Source: Escherichia coli
Lineage (GTDB): Bacteria; Pseudomonadota; Gammaproteobacteria; Enterobacterales; Enterobacteriaceae
Assembly (NCBI RefSeq): GCF_003991155.1
Contig: NZ_CP031293.1
Length of the DNA: 64,000 nucleotides
Strand: one strand, 5' to 3'
Shown here: positions 1,264-40,381 of the stretch, one piece after another
Layout: every line of letters begins with the position of its first letter
Position numbering within the stretch: the stretch's first letter is position 1
The notes under the pieces: model-generated
The model's input: only the letters and a program-made list of their open reading frames with translations
What the model was told of the DNA's origin: nothing
Databases searched by the model: none
Position numbers and translations under genes: made by a program

Positions 1264-3006
1264 ATGATAAAACCGACGTTTTTACGCCGGGTGGCCATTG
1301 CTGCTCTGCTCTCAGGAAGTTGTTTTAGCGCCGCCGCCGCGCCTCCTGCGCCGCCCGTCTCGTATGGTGTGGAGGAAGATGTCTTCCACCCGGTACGCGC
1401 GAAACAGGGAATGGTAGCGTCTGTGGACGCCACTGCCACTCAGGTGGGGGTGGATATTCTCAAGGAGGGCGGGAATGCCGTTGATGCCGCCGTGGCGGTG
1501 GGCTACGCGCTGGCGGTAACGCATCCGCAGGCAGGGAATCTGGGCGGTGGTGGTTTTATGTTAATCCGCTCGAAAAATGGCAATACCACGGCTATCGATT
1601 TCCGCGAAATGGCACCCGCCAAAGCGACCCGCGATATGTTCCTCGATGATCAGGGCAACCCGGACAGCAAAAAATCACTCACTTCGCATCTGGCTTCCGG
1701 CACACCGGGTACGGTAGCAGGTTTCTCGCTGGCGCTGGATAAATACGGCACCATGCCGCTGAACAAAGTCGTGCAGCCCGCGTTTAAACTGGCACGCGAT
1801 GGTTTTATCGTTAACGACGCGCTGGCTGACGATCTCAAAACCTACGGTAGCGAAGTGTTGCCGAATCACGAAAACAGTAAAGCTATCTTCTGGAAAGAGG
1901 GCGAGCCGCTGAAAAAGGGCGACACGCTGGTGCAGGCGAACCTGGCAAAGAGCCTGGAGATGATTGCTGAAAACGGCCCGGACGAATTCTATAAAGGCAC
2001 GATTGCGGAACAGATCGCCCAGGAGATGCAGAAAAACGGTGGCTTGATCACTAAAGAAGATTTAGCAGCCTATAAAGCGGTCGAACGTACTCCGATAAGC
2101 GGCGATTATCGCGGGTATCAGGTTTACTCCATGCCACCGCCATCCTCCGGCGGGATCCATATCGTACAAATCCTCAATATTCTGGAAAACTTCGATATGA
2201 AGAAATACGGCTTTGGCAGCGCCGATGCGATGCAAATCATGGCAGAAGCGGAGAAATACGCCTACGCCGACCGCTCGGAATATCTTGGCGACCCGGATTT
2301 TGTCAAAGTACCGTGGCAGGCGCTGACCAATAAAGCCTATGCCAAATCTATTGCCGATCAAATTGATATCAATAAAGCGAAGCCATCCAGCGAAATTCGC
2401 CCCGGCAAGCTTGCGCCTTATGAGAGTAATCAAACTACCCATTACTCAGTGGTGGATAAAGACGGCAACGCGGTGGCGGTGACCTATACGCTGAACACCA
2501 CCTTCGGGACGGGCATTGTCGCGGGCGAGAGCGGTATTCTGCTTAATAACCAGATGGATGATTTCTCCGCCAAACCGGGCGTACCGAACGTTTACGGGCT
2601 GGTGGGCGGTGATGCCAACGCGGTTGGGCCGAACAAACGCCCGCTGTCGTCGATGTCACCAACCATTGTGGTGAAAGACGGTAAAACCTGGCTGGTTACC
2701 GGTAGCCCTGGCGGGAGTCGGATTATTACCACCGTGCTGCAAATGGTGGTGAATAGCATCGATTATGGCATGAATGTCGCCGAAGCGACCAATGCACCGC
2801 GTTTCCACCATCAGTGGTTGCCGGACGAGCTGCGTGTCGAAAAAGGGTTTAGCCCGGATACGCTCAAGCTGCTGGAAGCAAAAGGTCAGAAAGTGGCGCT
2901 GAAAGAGGCGATGGGCAGTACACAAAGCATTATGGTTGGGCCGGACGGTGAGTTGTACGGCGCATCTGACCCGCGCTCGGTGGATGATTTAACGGCGGGG
3001 TATTAA
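1264..3006 (+). CDS. ggt: gamma-glutamyltranspeptidase
   Basis: 580-aa product starting MIKPTFLRRVAIAALLSGS with a signal peptide and the conserved GGT core; ATG at 1264 is preceded by GGAGAA; the track's longer ORF from 1237 is an upstream extension. Confidence 0.95.
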   Translation: MIKPTFLRRVAIAALLSGSCFSAAAAPPAPPVSYGVEEDVFHPVRAKQGMVASVDATATQVGVDILKEGGNAVDAAVAVGYALAVTHPQAGNLGGGGFMLIRSKNGNTTAIDFREMAPAKATRDMFLDDQGNPDSKKSLTSHLASGTPGTVAGFSLALDKYGTMPLNKVVQPAFKLARDGFIVNDALADDLKTYGSEVLPNHENSKAIFWKEGEPLKKGDTLVQANLAKSLEMIAENGPDEFYKGTIAEQIAQEMQKNGGLITKEDLAAYKAVERTPISGDYRGYQVYSMPPPSSGGIHIVQILNILENFDMKKYGFGSADAMQIMAEAEKYAYADRSEYLGDPDFVKVPWQALTNKAYAKSIADQIDINKAKPSSEIRPGKLAPYESNQTTHYSVVDKDGNAVAVTYTLNTTFGTGIVAGESGILLNNQMDDFSAKPGVPNVYGLVGGDANAVGPNKRPLSSMSPTIVVKDGKTWLVTGSPGGSRIITTVLQMVVNSIDYGMNVAEATNAPRFHHQWLPDELRVEKGFSPDTLKLLEAKGQKVALKEAMGSTQSIMVGPDGELYGASDPRSVDDLTAGY

Positions 3007-3013
3007 GGTTAGC

Positions 3014-3037
3014 GGCCCTCTTAGTGGGAAGAGGGCC
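3014..3037. terminator. hairpin between the convergent ggt and yrhB 3' ends
   Basis: Perfect 9-bp inverted repeat ggccctctt / aagagggcc with a 6-nt loop; no clear U-tract, so terminator function is inferred from position only. Confidence 0.4.
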
Positions 3038-3043
3038 GTATTG

Positions 3044-3328
3044 TCAGGGCAAGCCGAAGGTAGCCTTTTTTATTTCATAATCCTGTAGATATTCTTCCAG
3101 TGGCTTTGCCGTTCCCAGAGAATGAATTTCACCACTGCCTTTATCAATAATAAAAGGTGCGTTACCAGCTAAGCGCGCGGCCTCATCTCCAGATTCAAGA
3201 AATTATTGTGATTCGAAACAGAAATACCAGCCCTGGCTAAAACGTCCATGCAGAGTGATGACGACAGGGAGATCTGCATCATCAAGGTAATGGTTCGCTT
3301 TCGCGAATGCGTCGTGATAAGTAATCAT
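3044..3328 (-). pseudogene. yrhB: yrhB-like small protein gene interrupted by an in-frame TAA at codon 42
   Basis: Minus-strand ATG at 3328 gives MITYHDAFAKANHYLDDADLPVVITLHGRFSQGWYFCFESQ, then TAA at 3203-3205; the same frame stays open for 52 more codons (FLESGDEAARLAGNAPFIIDKGSGEIHSLGTAKPLEEYLQDYEIKKATFGLP) to a stop at 3044-3046. Total length equals the 94-codon yrhB as I recall it. Confidence 0.5.
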
Positions 3329-3777
3329 AATTATAATAAATATTATTGTTGATCGTTATATTATTATTCTTGCGTTATACTTTGAGAAAAGACGCGTTCA
3401 TCTTCGTCAAAGATATTATTAAATGCTGGTTTTGAAAAAAGTTCATCGGGTAATATACAGTCACGAAATAAGTATCTGCTAATGTTTTGTGATTTCTTTT
3501 TCAGAACGTCGAACGGGATTTTCTTATTTAAGATATCAGAATCTTATGATTCGGGTGAAATTCTAACTAAATCAACATGTCACTAAAATCATCATAGCCA
3601 TTAGCTATTTCGGCTAAAATAGAGATTACATGTCTTCGGTCCATCTCACTTAAGGAGTGTAGTTCCGTTGTAAGTTTTTCCATAGCTTGCATTGCTAAGT
3701 TTCGAACAAGGAATTTTCTGCTGGTAATCTCTAAAAAGATGGCATGGTTTATAATGATTTTTGTTACCTTTTGATTA

Positions 3778-4272
3778 TTATGAACAACTGTCCATGATTT
3801 CGTTTAAGAATGAAGAGAAATCACTAAACGAACTGAATATATTTTCTGTGCCAATATTATCTCTAATTTCAAAAAAGTTATTTTTAATGTCATAAGTAAA
3901 TATTGAAATGCTATCATCCCCGATCACTAACCGTTCTTGTAGATCAGGGTTTATGAAATCATCATTATTTCTATAAAATTCATTTACGGCAAAAAGGTTT
4001 TTAACTGAAGGTTCTGGAATCGAGAGGCTGAATAATCGTAATCCATTAACTTCGAATCCATCCATTGCTCTTAAAAAAGTAAGATAATCAGGTTGATTAT
4101 TAAAGAGAATACTAACTTCATTACATAACTTCTCCAGGCAATTAGTTGGATTAGAATTAAATTTTATTTGGATTATACTTTCAATAAATGATTCCTTGAG
4201 CGGTGCTTCAAATGGATAGTCTAAATCATTCATCATTTTTTTTAATTTATTTATTTGGGTTTTAGTCATCAT
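3778..4272 (-). CDS. hypothetical 164-aa protein; candidate cognate immunity protein for the YhhZ HNH toxin (occupies the yrhA position)
   Basis: ORF immediately downstream of yhhZ on the same strand with a 4-nt ATGA start/stop overlap (4269-4272); AT-rich, acidic, no signal peptide. The immunity role is inferred from synteny and coupling only. Confidence 0.6.
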   Translation of the reverse strand: MMTKTQINKLKKMMNDLDYPFEAPLKESFIESIIQIKFNSNPTNCLEKLCNEVSILFNNQPDYLTFLRAMDGFEVNGLRLFSLSIPEPSVKNLFAVNEFYRNNDDFINPDLQERLVIGDDSISIFTYDIKNNFFEIRDNIGTENIFSSFSDFSSFLNEIMDSCS

Positions 4273-5447
4273 TTTGTGGGTTCCATAATATTTTTCATGG
4301 GAGGATAAATTGAGCCAGATGGAATGGCCCAGGGAGTGATTTTGCTTTCACCTACTAATATTCCCTTAGCTATTCGTGATTGCATGTTAGTAAAAACTTT
4401 ATGATATGGTTCGTTTTCGATTAATACTAAATTTTCGAAATCATTAGTACCACCATCATCTAGAGATAGTTTATGGTGAACATTATAATTTAGAGGAACA
4501 TTGCCCTTTCTCATTCTTAAAAGGTCTTCGGCGTTGAATCTTCCAGATGCTTCGGAGGTTTTTGCAAGTTTGATAAGAAAATTTTTTCTTACAGTTTTAT
4601 TAAACTCCTTTCGTAAGTTAGCTAAGTCTTTTGAAGGTCTCTTAATGTATATTATTTCTATTATGTCTATACCATCAAGAAGTTTTTGTTGACCTCTAAG
4701 TTTGCCTAAGTAACTATTTATTTCTGTATATGTATCAACATTAGAACGCTTTGTTAAAAGAATAGATGCTGTTGCTATCGCTATGCCCGCTGTTTTTTCA
4801 TTTAGTATTTGATCATAGCCTTTTATTGCATCTCCACCCAGTTTTTCCGCAGTATCTCTGAATCCTTCAATGTTCCCATTGTATACGCCACCAGCAGCAA
4901 GTAGCCTGCCAATAGCTTTGCTGTTTAACGTTTTGAAACGATTATTTGTTTGGTTTTTTGAATTTGGTAAAAACAAACAGTTATAATTTTCAGGGAGTGC
5001 CAAATAGCTGAACTCGGTATTTGCGATAATCTGTTGACAGAGGATAAATTCATAACTAACAGTTATTGTTTCTGTATCCAGTTGATTTTCAATGATCTGA
5101 TGATGAATAGCCGATAAAAAAGCGCCTCTTAGTTGTATATAATAATACTTTTCCCATCTACCAAATCTATTTATTCGATAGAAGTCAAATCCCATAAATA
5201 ATTGTTCATTATTGTTAATGGAATTAATAAATAATGGAGTGCTTTTATCAATTAATTTACAAAATGTTATACCATGGAACTGTGAACCAAGCCCCGTATT
5301 AGTAATACTATTTAAGAGTGAGAATGTAAATATTTCATCCTCATGCCCGCTCTGCCAGCGATTACCTGTAGACTCAGAAGTCCCACAACCTGCGGAGATG
5401 CTTCCTTGTTGTTCTCCCGTTACTGTCAGGTAAACAATATTACTCAT
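4269..5447 (-). CDS. yhhZ: Hcp-family protein with a C-terminal HNH nuclease domain (Hcp extended-toxin type, YhhZ)
   Basis: 392 aa; the N-terminal ~160 aa look Hcp1-like (MSNIVYLTVTGEQQGSISAG...), and the C-terminus carries an HNH-like motif (NYNVHHKLSLDDGGTNDFENLVLIENEPYHKVF); markedly AT-rich compared with its neighbours. Confidence 0.8.
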   Translation of the reverse strand: MSNIVYLTVTGEQQGSISAGCGTSESTGNRWQSGHEDEIFTFSLLNSITNTGLGSQFHGITFCKLIDKSTPLFINSINNNEQLFMGFDFYRINRFGRWEKYYYIQLRGAFLSAIHHQIIENQLDTETITVSYEFILCQQIIANTEFSYLALPENYNCLFLPNSKNQTNNRFKTLNSKAIGRLLAAGGVYNGNIEGFRDTAEKLGGDAIKGYDQILNEKTAGIAIATASILLTKRSNVDTYTEINSYLGKLRGQQKLLDGIDIIEIIYIKRPSKDLANLRKEFNKTVRKNFLIKLAKTSEASGRFNAEDLLRMRKGNVPLNYNVHHKLSLDDGGTNDFENLVLIENEPYHKVFTNMQSRIAKGILVGESKITPWAIPSGSIYPPMKNIMEPTK

Positions 5448-5650
5448 CCCTGAAAAGTCCTTTTATGGCATGCTATTTTATTAATGGCACTATTATGCTT
5501 GTTAATTGTTATTTATTTACTCCAGGAAATTGTAGGCGTATATATTAATAATAAAATATTACACTTTAGGACGTAATTATGAGGTAAATCTCAATATATT
5601 TATTGGGCAAATAAATACATTAAAGGAAGATATGCCGATTTTGAATGACG

Positions 5651-11729: not shown

Positions 11730-13826
11730 ATGGAAAAGCACGGAGCTGAATTGCTTTTACAGCGGATGTTAGGAAATACCACCGCTACTTTCAGGGAAGG
11801 GCAATGGGAAGCCATAGATGCAGTGGTTAATCAGCGGCGAAAACTGCTGGTTGTACAGCGCACCGGCTGGGGGAAAAGTGCCGTGTACTTCATCGCCAGT
11901 AAAATCTTCCGCGATCGCGGCGCTGGCCCGACAATTATCATCTCTCCTTTGCTTGCCCTGATGCGTAACCAGGTTGCCGCCGCTGAACGGTTAGGTATTA
12001 CGGCTGAAACGTTGAATTCTACAAACAGGGAAGAATGGCAGCGCATTAGCGATAAGTTGCTGCAAGGTGAGGTCGATTGCTTGCTGGTTTCCCCGGAACG
12101 TTTGGCAAACCAGGACTTTATCGAAACGGTTTTATATCCTATAGCCGATCGTATTGGCTTGCTTGTGGTCGACGAGGCGCACTGCATCTCTGATTGGGGC
12201 CACGATTTTCGCCCGGATTACCGACGTATATTAGATATTTTGCGCCAACTGCCTGCGAATACCCCTGTTCTGGGTACAACCGCGACAGCGAATAACCGTG
12301 TTGTTGAGGATATCCGTCAGCAATTGGGTGACATTGTGATTCAGCGTGGAACGCTGGCTCGCGAAAGTTTGGCGCTTGATGCCTTAGTCTTAGGAGAACA
12401 GTCATCCCGTCTGGCATGGTTAGCAACGGTTATCCCTCAGTTTTCCAAATCGGGAATTGTTTATACCCTGACGACTCGCGATGCTGAACTTGTCGCCGAG
12501 TGGTTAAGGAAAAATGGTATCAGTGCATTTGCTTACTACAGCGGCGTGACTTGTGAAGGCGCGGAAGATTCTAATACTGCCAGGGAATATCTGGAGCAGG
12601 CACTGCTGGCAAATAAAATCAAAGTGCTGGTCGCGACGACGGCATTAGGTATGGGGTTTGATAAACCTGATTTAGGTTTCGTCATTCATTATCAGATGCC
12701 GGGGTCTATTGTCGGTTACTACCAACAGGTGGGGCGTGCCGGGCGTGCTATAGATTCCGCAGTTGGCATATTGCTTTGTGGTGGTGAAGACCGCGCTATT
12801 CATCAATTCTTCCGTGAAAGCGCCTTTCCTGCGGAGGCGCAAATTCATGAAATACTCAACGTACTTAGCGAGAATGACGGTCTTACCCTACGAGGCATTG
12901 AACAACGGACGAATCTTCGTTATGGGCAAATAGAAAAAGCACTGAAATTATTGGTAGCGGAAAATCCATCGCCTGTGGTGTATACCGAGAAATTATGGCG
13001 CAGAACTATCGTCAGTTTTTCTCCTGATCATGAACGAATTAACCATTTGATGAATCAGAGAAAAAGTGAGCTGGCAGACGTTGAAAGCTATATCACGACC
13101 AAGGAGTGCAAAATGCAATTTCTGCGCCGTGCACTCGATGAGCCAAGTGCCGAACGTTGTGGTAAATGTAGCAGTTGTCTTCAACATCCGTTATTGTCGC
13201 CCGACATTGATAGCGGCTTACTCCATGCGGCAAATTTATTTATTAAACACGCTGACCTGCCGTTAAATCTCAATAAACAGGTGGCAGCTGGGGCTTTTAC
13301 GCAATACGGATTTAAAGGGAACTTGCCTGCGGGTTTACAAGGATCTACGGGGCGAATCCTTTCTCGTTGGGGAGATTCCGGGTGGGGAAAGCAGGTAGCA
13401 CAGGAGAAAAAAACGGGGCGCTTAAGTGATGAGCTGGTAGAAGCATGTGCGGAAATGGTTTGCCAACGCTGGAATCCGCATCCTGAACCAACCTGGGTAT
13501 GCTGCGTTCCTTCATTAAGGCACCTCGACCTGGTTCCTGATTTTGCCCGGCGACTGGCGGCGAAACTTGGCTTACCTTTTATTGATGCCATTGAAAAAGT
13601 CGTGGACAATCCACCGCAGAAAATGCAGCAAAACCGTTTTCACCAGTGTCAAAATCTCGACGGGGCGTTTGTGATTACCCCTCCTTTGATGCCAGGTCCG
13701 GCGTTGCTGGTTGACGATATCGTGGATTCTGCATGGACGCTGACAGTTCTGACAGCACTGTTACGCAAGGCAGGTTGCCCGACGGTTTATCCTCTTGCCC
13801 TTGCTTCTACCTCGGTAAAAAATTGA
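11730..13826 (+). CDS. RecQ-like superfamily-2 DNA helicase fused to a C-terminal ComF-type phosphoribosyltransferase-like domain (PsyrT/ShosT-like candidate toxin or defence effector)
   Basis: 698 aa; helicase motifs Walker A (RTGWGKSAVY), DEAH in the RecQ-style context VVDEAHCISDWGHDFRPDY, TATA and QQVGRAGR; a Zn-binding Cys cluster (ERCGKCSSC); the last ~150 aa carry a PRPP-binding-like motif ALLVDDIVDSAWTLTVL resembling gntX/ComF MVIVDDVVTTGST. AGGAGA ribosome-binding site before the ATG. Not part of the K-12 gntU-yhgN junction as I recall it. Confidence 0.8.
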   Translation: MEKHGAELLLQRMLGNTTATFREGQWEAIDAVVNQRRKLLVVQRTGWGKSAVYFIASKIFRDRGAGPTIIISPLLALMRNQVAAAERLGITAETLNSTNREEWQRISDKLLQGEVDCLLVSPERLANQDFIETVLYPIADRIGLLVVDEAHCISDWGHDFRPDYRRILDILRQLPANTPVLGTTATANNRVVEDIRQQLGDIVIQRGTLARESLALDALVLGEQSSRLAWLATVIPQFSKSGIVYTLTTRDAELVAEWLRKNGISAFAYYSGVTCEGAEDSNTAREYLEQALLANKIKVLVATTALGMGFDKPDLGFVIHYQMPGSIVGYYQQVGRAGRAIDSAVGILLCGGEDRAIHQFFRESAFPAEAQIHEILNVLSENDGLTLRGIEQRTNLRYGQIEKALKLLVAENPSPVVYTEKLWRRTIVSFSPDHERINHLMNQRKSELADVESYITTKECKMQFLRRALDEPSAERCGKCSSCLQHPLLSPDIDSGLLHAANLFIKHADLPLNLNKQVAAGAFTQYGFKGNLPAGLQGSTGRILSRWGDSGWGKQVAQEKKTGRLSDELVEACAEMVCQRWNPHPEPTWVCCVPSLRHLDLVPDFARRLAAKLGLPFIDAIEKVVDNPPQKMQQNRFHQCQNLDGAFVITPPLMPGPALLVDDIVDSAWTLTVLTALLRKAGCPTVYPLALASTSVKN

Positions 13827-15028
13827 TGAATCTTTCAGCCAATGCACAAGCGACCCTCCTGCTAACCAGCGATTTTTCTCGCGCGGCGGCGAGTGAGTAT
13901 AAACCTCTTAGTAATAGTGAATGGGGGAAGTTTGCATTATGGCTGAAGCACCAACGTATCAGTCCCGCCGATCTTCTGGTGCCGCAACCGCAAGAGAAAC
14001 TTACAGGCTGGAGCGATCCGCGTATTTCTCAGGAGCGTATTCTTGGCTTGCTGGCGCGTGGCCATAGTCTGGCGTTGGCGGTAGATAAGTGGCAACGCGC
14101 CGGTTTATGGATCTTAACCCGCGGAGATGCCGATTATCCCGTTCGCTTGAAAAACCGATTGCGAACGGATGCACCTCCCGTTTTATTTGGCTGCGGGAAT
14201 AAAGCATTACTGCAAGCGGAAGGTATGGCGATTGTTGGCTCGCGAGATGCTCCGACTGCCGATTTGCGCTATACCCAACAACTGGCAGCGAAACTGGCCC
14301 AACAGGGGATTTGCGTTATCTCTGGTGGTGCGCGAGGTATTGATGAATGTGCAATGGCGTCGGCACTGGAGGCCGGGGGAACTGCCGTTGGCGTATTAGC
14401 TGATAGCTTGTTAAAAACGAGTACGTTAGTGAAATGGCGTGAAGGGCTTATAGCAGGCAACCTGGTGTTGATTTCGCCGTTTTACCCAGAGGTACGTTTC
14501 ACCGTCGGCAATGCGATGGCGCGAAATAAATATATTTATTGCCTTGCTGAAAGCGCAATGGTTGTACGTGCGGGAATGACCGGTGGAACGATAACCGGAG
14601 CGATGGAGGCGTTAAAACATCAGTGGCTGCCTGTGCAGGTTAAACCAAATCAGGATGTGCAATCAGCCAATTCACGATTAGTAGAAAATGGGGCGTCATG
14701 GAGTGCTGAACAGGCTGAGAATGTGACGATCAGACTGCCAGACGTTCCTGGGCTGATGTATGACAGAGCACTCCGTAACGCTCAACCAGAATTGTTTTCG
14801 CTGCACGAAGATGACGCAAATTACGCAGTGATGCCCTCGCATACCCCTGTCGATTTTTATCAACTTTTTGTGGCGGAACTGGCGATCCTTGCAAAGGAAT
14901 CGATAAGTATTGAAAGGCTGGCGTCTTGTACTGGTTTAACCATCGAACAAATTAGTGTGTGGCTGAACCGCGCAGAAGAAGAGGGAAGGGTTATCCGATT
15001 GGGCGAAGGTCATTATCAGTTCAGGTAA
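13826..15028 (+). CDS. DprA/Smf-like Rossmann-fold DNA-processing protein (PsyrA/ShosA-like candidate antitoxin or partner)
   Basis: 400 aa from the ATG at 13826, which overlaps the upstream TGA (TGATG, translational coupling); DprA signature (MAIVGSRDAPTADLRY ... VISGGARGIDECAMASALEAGG) and a C-terminal winged-helix-like tail; the track's longer ORF from 13733 is an in-frame extension into the upstream gene. Confidence 0.8.
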   Translation: MNLSANAQATLLLTSDFSRAAASEYKPLSNSEWGKFALWLKHQRISPADLLVPQPQEKLTGWSDPRISQERILGLLARGHSLALAVDKWQRAGLWILTRGDADYPVRLKNRLRTDAPPVLFGCGNKALLQAEGMAIVGSRDAPTADLRYTQQLAAKLAQQGICVISGGARGIDECAMASALEAGGTAVGVLADSLLKTSTLVKWREGLIAGNLVLISPFYPEVRFTVGNAMARNKYIYCLAESAMVVRAGMTGGTITGAMEALKHQWLPVQVKPNQDVQSANSRLVENGASWSAEQAENVTIRLPDVPGLMYDRALRNAQPELFSLHEDDANYAVMPSHTPVDFYQLFVAELAILAKESISIERLASCTGLTIEQISVWLNRAEEEGRVIRLGEGHYQFR

Positions 15029-26648: not shown

Positions 26649-26731
26649 GCCTTTATTTAGGAAAAGTGTCCAGAGGGGGCGAGGGTTATCGGGGAGTATA
26701 ATTTCGCCATTCAGCAAGAATGGAAAGAATA

Positions 26732-28237
26732 ATGCAAAACGGAAAATGGATTTTGACCTCGCTGGTAATGACTTTTTTTGGCATCCCCATACTGGCGCAA
26801 TTTTTGGCAGCGGTTGTTGCCATGCTGGGGGCCGGGCTTGCCGCTATTCTTGAGGTTTGCAATTTACTCTTTACGCCAACAATTTATCTTCTACTCAACG
26901 TCTTTATGCTGACGCTGGGGGCGATAATCATATTTTTCTCTGGTCGCGTGTGGACTGGTGATAGCGCACCAGAAAAAAGAGAAATAGCCGCCTGGCGACA
27001 ATGCTTTTTTCTCTTACCCGCGCTATTAACCCTGATTGGCTGGATAATCGCGCTACATCTGGCAGATTATCAACTTCGCCAGATGGGAGCCGGTTGGTTG
27101 GCAAACCTTATGCTTCCCTGGTTGGGCGTTTTTACAGTCTCATTCGTCGGTGGTGAGTACTGGTGGATAGTCATTATTCCCGTTGGCGCGCATATCAGTT
27201 TTTCACTGGGATACGGCTGGCCGACCAGACACCCTTTAACCGGCACCTCCGGTCTACGTTGCCGTAATTTACTTCTGTTCATTCTTCTCTTACTGGGTAT
27301 TGTCGCTGGTTATCAGGCTTATTTATATAAACAGCTTAATCCCGGCGTCGGTGTGCGTGAAAATATTGATACCTGGGCCTGGCGACCCGATAAACTTAAT
27401 AATCAACTGACGCCACTGCGTGGTAAACCACAAATTCAATTTACGCAAAACTGGCCGCGACTCGATGGCGCTACGGCGGCGTACCCCATTTATGCCTCTG
27501 CATTTTATGCATTAAGTGTAATACCAGAGGATTTTCACGTTTGGGATTATCTGGATAACTCTCGTACGCCAGAAGCATATAACAAAATCGTTAACGGTGA
27601 TGCCGATATTATTTTCGTGGCGCAACCTTCCGATGGGCAAAAAAAACGCGCTGAGAAATCGGGCGTCACTTTGCTGTACACGCCATTTGCCCGTGAAGCG
27701 TTTGTTTTCATCGTCAATGCGGATAATCCGGTTAATTCCCTGACTGAACAACAAGTGCGTGACATTTTTAGTGGCGAAATTACCAACTGGCGCACGGTTG
27801 GCGGTAAGGATCAGGAGATCCAGACCTGGCAACGCCCGGAAGACTCTGGCAGCCAGACAGTGATGCAATCACAGGTCATGAAAAATGTCCGCATGATCTC
27901 GCCGCAGGAAACCGAAGTGGCAAGCATGATGGAGGGAATGATTAAAGTCGTTGCCGAATACCGTAATACAAACAACGCAATAGGCTACACCTTCCGCTAT
28001 TACGCAACACAAATGAATGCCGATAAAAATATAAAACTGCTAGCGATTAACGGTATTGCACCGACTGCGGAAAATATTCGTAACGGCAAATATCCGTATA
28101 TCATCGATGCCTTTATGGTAACGCGGGAAAATACTACGTCAGAAACACAAAAACTGGTCGAATGGTTTTTAACGCCGCAGGGACAGAGTCTGGTGGAAGA
28201 TGTGGGCTATGTGCCGCTGTATCCAACAATGAAATAA
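26732..28237 (+). CDS. membrane-anchored PstS-like substrate-binding protein (N-terminal polytopic membrane domain fused to a C-terminal phosphate/oxyanion-binding-protein-like domain)
   Basis: About 200 aa of hydrophobic helices, then a binding-protein-like domain with an R-x-x-D-S-G-S-Q-T motif (QRPEDSGSQTVM) reminiscent of the PstS phosphate-binding loop; start taken at the ATG at 26732 (MQNGKW, GGAAAG upstream), though 26720 is also possible. K-12 has only a pseudogene remnant (yzgL) at this position, from memory. Confidence 0.65.
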   Translation: MQNGKWILTSLVMTFFGIPILAQFLAAVVAMLGAGLAAILEVCNLLFTPTIYLLLNVFMLTLGAIIIFFSGRVWTGDSAPEKREIAAWRQCFFLLPALLTLIGWIIALHLADYQLRQMGAGWLANLMLPWLGVFTVSFVGGEYWWIVIIPVGAHISFSLGYGWPTRHPLTGTSGLRCRNLLLFILLLLGIVAGYQAYLYKQLNPGVGVRENIDTWAWRPDKLNNQLTPLRGKPQIQFTQNWPRLDGATAAYPIYASAFYALSVIPEDFHVWDYLDNSRTPEAYNKIVNGDADIIFVAQPSDGQKKRAEKSGVTLLYTPFAREAFVFIVNADNPVNSLTEQQVRDIFSGEITNWRTVGGKDQEIQTWQRPEDSGSQTVMQSQVMKNVRMISPQETEVASMMEGMIKVVAEYRNTNNAIGYTFRYYATQMNADKNIKLLAINGIAPTAENIRNGKYPYIIDAFMVTRENTTSETQKLVEWFLTPQGQSLVEDVGYVPLYPTMK

Positions 28238-28262
28238 CGCTCGAGAGAAAGGAATCAGCGCA

Positions 28263-29255
28263 ATGAATAAATTCACCGGTGTTTTACTATTAGGTACGGC
28301 GCTACTGGCGGGATGTGTCGACCGGGAAGGGTACTATAACAGCGTCAGGGAAGAAGACAGCCATGGACTGACGTCTCTGCGGGGGCAACCTGAATTACGT
28401 TACAACGATGATTGGTCAAGATGGCCGAGAGTGTACGGCGCTACAGCCTTATACCCGCTGTATGCCTCCGCGTATTATGAATTAGTACCCGAGCCAAAAG
28501 ATAAGGATCGAACCTCGCTGGCCTGGCAGGCGTATGGTTTGCAACAAACCCGAACAGCTGAAGCCTACGATAGTCTGATTAAGGGTACCGCGACGGTTAT
28601 TTTTGTTGCACAACCGTCGGAAGGACAGAAAAAACGTGCAGAAGAAGCAGGTGTTAAACTCAAATATACCGCTTTCGCCCGCGAAGCCTTTGTCTTTATC
28701 GTTGATATCAAAAACCCGGTTAATTCACTTAGCGAACAGCAGGTCAAAGACATTTTTAGCGGTAAAGTGAGTCGCTGGAATAAAGTGGGCGGCGGTGACG
28801 AAAGTATAAAAGTCTGGCAGCGGCCAGAAGATTCTGGAAGCCAAACGGTTATGAAGGGACTGGTTATGCAAGATACTCCAATGCTGCCAGCCAAAAAATC
28901 CACTGTTATCGATCTTATGGGCGGTTTAATTACCGAAGTCGCCGACTACCAAAATACACCATCTTCTATTGGATACACCTTCTACTATTACGTCACACGT
29001 ATGAATGACAATATGCTCAAAATGCGCAAACAGATCAAACTGCTGGCTATAAATGGCGTTGCACCTACAGAGGAAAATATCCGTAACGGCACTTATCCGT
29101 ACATAATTCATGCTTATATGGTGACGCACGAAAACCCTACGCTGGAAACACAGAAATTCGTCGACTGGTTTTTAAGCCCGCAGGGACAGCAATTGGTAGA
29201 GGATGTGGGCTATGTGCCGATTTATGACGCATCATCCGAATCATCAGGACAATAA
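28263..29255 (+). CDS. PstS-like substrate-binding lipoprotein, paralog of the C-terminal domain of the upstream gene
   Basis: 330 aa; lipoprotein signal with lipobox (MNKFTGVLLLGTALLAGC); shares long near-identical blocks with the upstream protein (VIFVAQPSEGQKKRAEEAGV, QRPEDSGSQTVM, KLLAINGVAPTEENIRNGTYPYII, VEDVGYVPIY); AAGGAA ribosome-binding site. Confidence 0.7.
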   Translation: MNKFTGVLLLGTALLAGCVDREGYYNSVREEDSHGLTSLRGQPELRYNDDWSRWPRVYGATALYPLYASAYYELVPEPKDKDRTSLAWQAYGLQQTRTAEAYDSLIKGTATVIFVAQPSEGQKKRAEEAGVKLKYTAFAREAFVFIVDIKNPVNSLSEQQVKDIFSGKVSRWNKVGGGDESIKVWQRPEDSGSQTVMKGLVMQDTPMLPAKKSTVIDLMGGLITEVADYQNTPSSIGYTFYYYVTRMNDNMLKMRKQIKLLAINGVAPTEENIRNGTYPYIIHAYMVTHENPTLETQKFVDWFLSPQGQQLVEDVGYVPIYDASSESSGQ

Positions 29256-29257
29256 AG

Positions 29258-29863
29258 ATGAATAAAATCAGACTTTATATTCCTCCGTTAATTCTTGGTT
29301 TTGTTATTGTGCCGTTGTTGGTGTGGCCGACGGTGGTTGCGCTGGCTGCTTGTGTTATCACGCTGAGTTTTATGGGAGAAATACTGTTCTCTATCCCGCT
29401 CATGTTCAGGAGTATTTCACTTCTGGAATTCCAACTTGGGTTATTGGCTGAATATGCACTTTTTTTCTGTGCCATGTGTTGCGTTGGTTGGCAATTTTCT
29501 TGCAGAACTCAATCTGAACTGAAAAGCAGACTCCATTGTTGGTTGGTATTTGCACCAGTTTATTTCTGGTTGCTCCTGTGGAATATCATTTTCTATGTCG
29601 CGCCAGCGCAAATTGCTTTGCTGGAAAATATGCGCAATTTCTTTCTGACCATTGTCTGGTTACCCCTGAATTTTTTTCAATTTGGGTCTCAGCCGTGGAC
29701 TGACTTTATCGGTCCGATAAGCGCCCAGCTTGGTTTTGCATTGGGATATTATTGCCAGTGGCGTAGCAAAAATAGAAGTCAGAGGAAGAAGTGGGGCGAG
29801 TGGGTAACGTGCTTAAGTTTGGCGATTTTAGCTCAGGGGCCGTTATTCAATTATTTACAATGA
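29258..29863 (+). CDS. hypothetical polytopic membrane protein
   Basis: 201-aa ORF with about five hydrophobic segments, 2 bp after the lipoprotein gene (probable operon); no recognisable family from sequence alone. Confidence 0.5.
   Translation: MNKIRLYIPPLILGFVIVPLLVWPTVVALAACVITLSFMGEILFSIPLMFRSISLLEFQLGLLAEYALFFCAMCCVGWQFSCRTQSELKSRLHCWLVFAPVYFWLLLWNIIFYVAPAQIALLENMRNFFLTIVWLPLNFFQFGSQPWTDFIGPISAQLGFALGYYCQWRSKNRSQRKKWGEWVTCLSLAILAQGPLFNYLQ

Positions 29864-37644: not shown

Positions 37645-40381
<2,737 letters not shown>

Follow-up and report, generated by a model that had tools for sequence, protein, structure and literature searches.

A nonsense pseudogene of the Imm35-family gene yrhB in the Escherichia coli clone ST457

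Imm35 proteins and the yrhB islet

Imm35 (Pfam PF15567) is an alpha+beta immunity domain with the signature 'alpha+beta; W, [ST]', which is specifically associated with papain-like toxins of the Tox-PL1 type and also with Ntox40, and it was suggested to be a peptidase inhibitor (Zhang et al. 2012, signature in Table 3, PMC3482391). Orphan immunity and polyimmunity loci, considered in the same work, are among the closest described counterparts of the locus analysed here. In Escherichia coli K-12, the family is represented by yrhB (b3446, 94 aa, 'YrhB family protein', Pfam Imm35), situated between ggt and the yrhD/yrhA/yhhZ islet, as in the sequence under study. The literature found on yrhB consists of passing mentions, namely a list of 'chaperones' (PMC6598250) and a cold-shock/H-NS-type 5'UTR. 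NCBIfam and PADLOC contained no YrhB model, and a search for a solved structure of a YrhB relative gave only an irrelevant best PDB match (E 0.83).

The window, i.e., the whole stretch of 64,000 nt of E. coli DNA that was analysed, begins with the ggt–yhhW region of K-12 in reverse orientation. The genes ugpQ, yhhA and ggt on the plus strand are followed by a minus-strand block of yrhB, a remnant of yrhD, yrhA and yhhZ/tssD, and then by yhhY, yhhX and yhhW (Table 1). This islet is low in G+C: the content is 0.32 at 3329–5650 and 0.44 in yrhB versus 0.51 in the window as a whole.

The product of yhhZ is a putative T6SS effector of the Hcp-ET type. Its C-terminal extension gave a weak match to HNH (17.3 bits, below the Pfam cut-off of 21.4), and a gene of the YrhA family follows it. 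Hcp-ET1, an HNH-DNase, has been described in reviews (PMC6730261). YrhA, for which no Pfam match was found, is presumed from its position to be the immunity partner of the upstream Hcp-toxin. The truncated yrhD, a second pseudogene of the islet, also occurs in the strains GF131, E7-1N7, ST2747 and 266917_2, and an intact gene of 51 aa is present in K-12 and O145; the 41-aa open reading frame of this region (3567–3692) had no match in Pfam or NCBIfam.

When the three neighbours of yrhB in the islet were scanned with Pfam, matches were obtained for yhhZ alone (Hcp and the sub-threshold HNH), and no Tox-PL1, Ntox40 or other peptidase-type toxin was found among the islet genes (ggt was named from RefSeq). 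For this reason, the description that suits yrhB best is that of an orphan immunity gene. Like the orphan and polyimmunity loci (PMC3482391), it is an immunity gene for which the scan of the islet genes gave no cognate toxin, and it lies in a low-GC islet beside an unrelated putative T6SS Hcp-toxin/immunity pair; unlike them, it is additionally inactivated. The yrhB of the window is a typical case of a non-essential accessory gene turned into a pseudogene by a nonsense mutation, and the feature is already known from the public RefSeq record of an ST457 genome, 2016C-3878 (NZ_CP029747.1), where BEN53_RS21000, 100% identical to the window gene, is flagged by PGAP as 'YrhB family protein, pseudo, internal stop'.

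Table 1. Features of the yrhB islet and of other parts of the window (positions in the 64,000-nt stretch).
Feature	Position	Strand	Basis or remark
Hairpin, G+C-rich, 10-bp stem	3013–3038		RNA fold, −18.9 kcal/mol, z = −5.7
yrhB pseudogene	3044–3328	−	Translation; gap-free alignment with five orthologues; RefSeq 'pseudo, internal stop'; intact allele is a full Imm35
C-terminal half of the gene, not translated (yrhB codons 43–94 and stop)	3044–3202	−	Codon listing; Pfam profile positions 44–85
Premature TAA, codon 42	3203–3205	−	'tta' on the plus strand; causal G→T at coding nt 124
Remaining ORF of 41 codons, N-terminal half of Imm35 with W34	3206–3328	−	ORF listing; Pfam profile positions 1–41 of 85
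Low-GC islet between ggt and yhhY with the yrhB–yhhZ genes	roughly 3050–5650		Composition profile
yrhD remnant	3570–3683	−	RefSeq on identical sequence: 'incomplete, missing C-terminus'
yrhA, intact, 164 aa	3778–4272	−	NCBIfam NF038335 (YrhA family), E 3.1e-37; annotations
yhhZ/tssD, Hcp domain with C-terminal extension	4269–5447	−	PF05638, E 1.1e-10; TIGR03344, E 2.1e-32
Two-gene PsyrTA/RqlHI-type module between gntU and yhgN	11730–15028	+	PADLOC; Pfam
Two PstS-family genes and a hypothetical gene, glpD to glgP	about 26729–29863	+	Mapped from NZ_CP029747.1
malT	37645–40375	−	
Duplication in malT	39329–39384	−	Perfect 25-bp tandem unit, 2.2 copies

The causal base and its clonal distribution

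Minus-strand translation of the yrhB locus gives MITYHDAFAKANHYLDDADLPVVITLHGRFSQGWYFCFESQ*FLESGDEAARLAGNAPFIIDKGSGEIHSLGTAKPLEEYLQDYEIKKATFGLP*, i.e., a frame of 94 codons with TAA as codon 42, closed by the normal TGA. The sequence-only reading had described just such a frame, intact in length and register up to its normal stop and interrupted at codon 42, and these statements were confirmed; the local sequence quoted in it, TTCGAATCACAATAATTTCTTGAA, matches nucleotides 112–135 of the coding strand. It had also proposed a cluster of substitutions rather than an indel, and of this suggestion only the second half has survived. The alignment of the window gene with orthologues from the complete genomes of GF131, E7-1N7, ST2747, 266917_2 and a K-12 derivative comprises 285 columns with zero gaps, so there is no indel, but the lesion is one base. 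Codon 42 is GAA (Glu) in all five intact alleles, and a single G→T transversion at coding nucleotide 124 (window base 3205, 'a' on the plus strand instead of the 'c' of intact alleles) gives TAA (E42*).

The intact allele shared by GF131 and E7-1N7 (WP_089583060.1) is identical to the window over 394 nt (3007–3400) save for the base that creates the stop, and from 2848 to 3449 this base is the sole difference between the window and GF131. In this allele, the state directly ancestral to the ST457 yrhB is preserved.

The K-12 gene has the same length and register, has GAA as codon 42 and gives the complete protein; it differs from the window gene in 12 nucleotides besides the stop. Four amino acid replacements separate the two proteins (A40S, R41Q, T46S and D64G), and all of them are also found in the intact GF131/E7-1N7 allele. 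Near the stop, A40S, R41Q, a synonymous CTC→CTT change and T46S are present in the intact alleles of GF131, E7-1N7, ST2747 and 266917_2; thus, of the five local differences from K-12, four occur in intact alleles elsewhere, and nucleotide 124 is the private one. Since intact alleles of several lineages carry the neighbouring changes, these are old polymorphisms, and a cluster of substitutions, gene conversion and a mutational hotspot were rejected as the cause of the lesion. Comparison with K-12 only can disguise old polymorphism as a fresh 'cluster of substitutions'.

Residue 64 (codon at 3137–3139) is Gly (IIDKGSGEI) in the ST457 allele and in GF131/E7-1N7, and Asp (IIDKDSGEI) in all other alleles examined. 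The D64G replacement is non-conservative and adjoins a Ser that may belong to the conserved [ST] signature of the family.

The distribution of the allele was studied in 5,426 complete E. coli genomes. The 394-nt region found matches in 4,089 of them, and 1,337, about a quarter, had no match to the yrhB query. Identity of 100% was observed in 49 genomes, and the exact stop-bearing 61-mer is present in these same 49 and in no others; a further 618 genomes differ by 1–3 bases from this stop-centred 61-mer. In 266917_2, the one of these 618 that was checked, the lone mismatch is G at nucleotide 124. With positions 1–25000 of the window as a query, the same 49 genomes alone reach 99.8–100% identity, followed by GF131 with 98.8% and by a group with 98.4–98.5%, to which IAI39 and CE10, reference strains of phylogroup F, belong. 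The distribution of the stop allele is, therefore, exactly that of the clone. The 49 carriers show zero further changes across the 394 nt, which indicates a young lesion.

Two carriers, CREC-544 and AR13438, are published strains of ST457, a lineage described as emerging in humans, in food animals and in wildlife, and one of the papers on ST457 types its own isolate as phylogroup F (PMC5884925, PMC9860340, PMC10100771). Membership in ST457 is documented for these 2 of the 49 genomes, and for the remaining 47 it is probable from their 99.8–100% identity over 25 kb. The carriers were sequenced by many groups. Their hosts are humans, cattle, poultry, pigs, sheep, dogs, cats, mink and wild birds, and some come from rivers and wastewater; papers or the record place them in the USA, Korea and China, and sample names imply further places.

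These data bear directly on the question of whether the stop is real. A sequencing or assembly error over a true GAA codon, one of the options of the sequence-only reading, would make a difference of exactly the size observed, one base from the closest intact allele. The same base, however, recurs in 49 complete assemblies that were made independently and differ in laboratory, year, host and country; it is fully concordant with clonal relatedness over 25 kb, and the site lies outside any homopolymer or repeat. An error is, therefore, excluded for practical purposes. Comparison with other isolates of the lineage, which had been proposed as a check, revealed the stop in 49 of the 49 genomes of the ST457-type clone, and the pseudogene option holds.

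It had also been reasoned that the same stop in reference genomes would mean a genuinely shorter gene. The same stop was indeed found in other genomes, but these belong to one clone with one inherited mutation. The gene is not naturally short, because intact alleles of 94 codons are under purifying selection in the five other lineages examined: dN/dS among these alleles is 0.10–0.30, and it follows that yrhB is normally maintained by selection.

Consequences of the stop for the protein

The intact sister allele matches the Pfam Imm35 profile over its entire length (76.9 bits, E 1.3e-21, residues 5–83, profile positions 1–85 of 85). The 41-aa product of the window gene scores 30.0 bits, just over the gathering cut-off of 27.5 bits, and the unread half scores 33.9 bits. 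Hence, the DNA of yrhB belongs to the Imm35 family and its translated product is half a domain. The conserved Trp (W34) lies in the retained half; the candidate Ser/Thr residues (S65, S70 and T73) are situated past the stop.

Codon listing revealed no in-frame ATG, GTG or TTG in codons 43–92. Because there is no in-frame start before codon 93, the second half cannot be a separate product, and a split gene with two products was rejected. The sole ATG nearby (yrhB nucleotide 143) is out of frame and abuts GGAG without a spacer.

Readthrough or recoding, by which full-length YrhB would still be made through suppression, had been listed as another option. The frame past the stop is fully open and identical to that of the intact GF131 allele, as this explanation would demand, but an open downstream frame is also expected of a young pseudogene, and the 49 carriers have not accumulated any further change. 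The codon is UAA, not UGA or UAG, and UAA is not known to specify selenocysteine or pyrrolysine. It is followed by U (TAA-T in the DNA), and in E. coli no context terminates translation more efficiently than UAA-U. Natural E. coli is not known to carry ochre suppressors, and no tRNA gene was found in the 64-kb window, so a nearby suppressor tRNA is ruled out within it. Moreover, the change is a derived state of one clone, is found in no other lineage and is not a conserved feature of the family, which speaks against programmed recoding. Suppression of this stop is very unlikely.

A phase-variable switch was also considered and rejected: the change is a substitution in the non-repetitive CACAA[G/T]AATTT, outside any repeat, and is fixed in 49 of the 49 clone members. 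What was found is a premature stop relative to orthologues of the same length, recurring in 49 genomes, with no restart codon or suppressor tRNA detected, and this is what characterizes a nonsense pseudogene.

We infer that the 41-residue product is non-functional, and simple loss of YrhB is the most likely consequence of the stop. Some residual activity of the fragment may be conceived, as its sequence keeps the conserved Trp and the match of 30.0 bits.

Effects of the stop on other genes were also considered. The hairpin between yrhB and ggt is placed between their convergent stops (3044 and 3006, respectively); a simple terminator scan did not call it, since it has no T-run. As yrhB is the final gene of its transcription direction, followed by this strong hairpin and the convergent ggt, there is no co-directional gene downstream on which the stop could be polar, and a polar effect was ruled out.

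Decay of the islet, fixation of the allele and other lesions

The islet is dispensable and is eroding independently in other lineages. In K-12, IS1 is inserted in yrhA (positions 3901–5043 of the extracted locus), so the two genomes are mirror cases: yrhA is degenerate in K-12 and intact in the window, and yrhB is the degenerate gene of the window. In O145 RM10425 (RM10425-C1), yrhB was inactivated independently, as in ST457, but by a 1-nt deletion near codon 86 on a K-12-like haplotype and not by a nonsense substitution; the frameshifted gene has 284 nt (positions 1538–1821 of the extracted locus), and tssD in this strain is also degraded, with a frameshift and an internal stop. Ec-U3 has lost yrhB, yrhA and a part of tssD and carries an IS1 element instead, and in STEC307 all islet genes but yrhB are deleted.

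In our opinion, the yrhB of the window is a recent loss-of-function pseudogene (E42*) that arose once in the ancestor of ST457 and was fixed by drift or hitch-hiking; we give this reading a probability of about 0.93. A G→T transversion turned Glu-42 (GAA) into an ochre stop (TAA), translation ends at residue 41, in the middle of the only Imm35 domain, and, as the second half cannot be started alone, no functional YrhB would be made. The mutation would have had a single origin in the ancestor of the clone, in the neighbourhood of phylogroup F, and would have been inherited by all descendants. The gene occupies the far end of a putative Hcp-toxin/immunity islet that is low in G+C and was acquired horizontally. 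Its loss was most likely fixed by drift, or by being carried along as the clone expanded, while selection was locally relaxed; selection for the loss is the less likely cause. The ST457 allele is read as relaxed-selection decay fixed with the clone because the islet erodes independently in other lineages. Neutral fixation is the most likely course, and for ST457 specifically it is an assumption, because the dN/dS values show that the intact gene is maintained in other lineages.

The same values may be turned into an argument for adaptive loss or neofunctionalisation, according to which E42* was not neutral and either the loss of the Imm35 protein, if YrhB was costly, or the gain of an active 41-residue peptide was selected as ST457 emerged. 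Purifying selection on intact alleles elsewhere means that yrhB is not lost by default; E42* has reached fixation in a clone that is successful worldwide, and the fragment, with its conserved Trp, is still recognizable as the N-terminal half of Imm35. Hitch-hiking, however, equally predicts fixation in a clone, E42* has only one independent origin, the unrelated lesions of yrhB or its neighbours in other lineages are typical of relaxed selection, and half an alpha+beta domain would be unlikely to fold. Selection for the truncation is, therefore, improbable; if it did take place, YrhB may interfere with the toxin and immunity genes of the clone itself or be made redundant by them. Loss of YrhB by neutral decay remains our preferred explanation.

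Several other features of the window deserve mention. In malT, a perfect tandem duplication of the unit GGCAGCTCCGCCGCCAGTTCCCACT causes a frameshift and leaves two open reading frames, 39215–40375 (386 aa) and 37645–39474 (609 aa). It is absent from the ST457 genome 2016C-3878, and the best eight genomes listed match the region of the duplication as two pieces spanning 76 bp only; the duplication appears to be private to this isolate. Disruption of malT should abolish the activator of the maltose regulon and lead to a Mal-minus phenotype, lowered LamB and resistance to phage lambda, and this lesion is more consequential than the stop in yrhB. At position 2625 (ggt), the window has T and both 2016C-3878 and GF131 have C; no other base separates the window from 2016C-3878 over the first 39 kb, and T is probably a SNP peculiar to this isolate.

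Two further groups of genes were also noticed. The toxin-antitoxin or defence module between gntU and yhgN consists of a RecQ-like helicase of 698 aa (PADLOC PsyrT, E = 0) that overlaps a DprA-like PsyrA (E 5.5e-202; Pfam DNA_processg_A). A RecQ-family helicase is also listed among the best matches to positions 1–25000 of the window, including those in IAI39 and CE10, and to our knowledge K-12 has no such genes between gntU and yhgN. The PstS-family genes between glpD and glgP encode phosphate-binding proteins; in K-12, this interval presumably contains only the yzgL pseudogene remnant.

The biological weight of the yrhB lesion is very small, as one more small accessory gene is inactivated in one clone. 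T at coding nucleotide 124 is, at the same time, a clean marker, present in 49 of the 49 ST457-type members and in no other of the 5,426 genomes. The locus as a whole is a tidy example of the piecemeal decay of a putative T6SS Hcp-toxin/immunity islet, which has proceeded by a nonsense mutation, a frameshift, an IS1 insertion and two different deletions.
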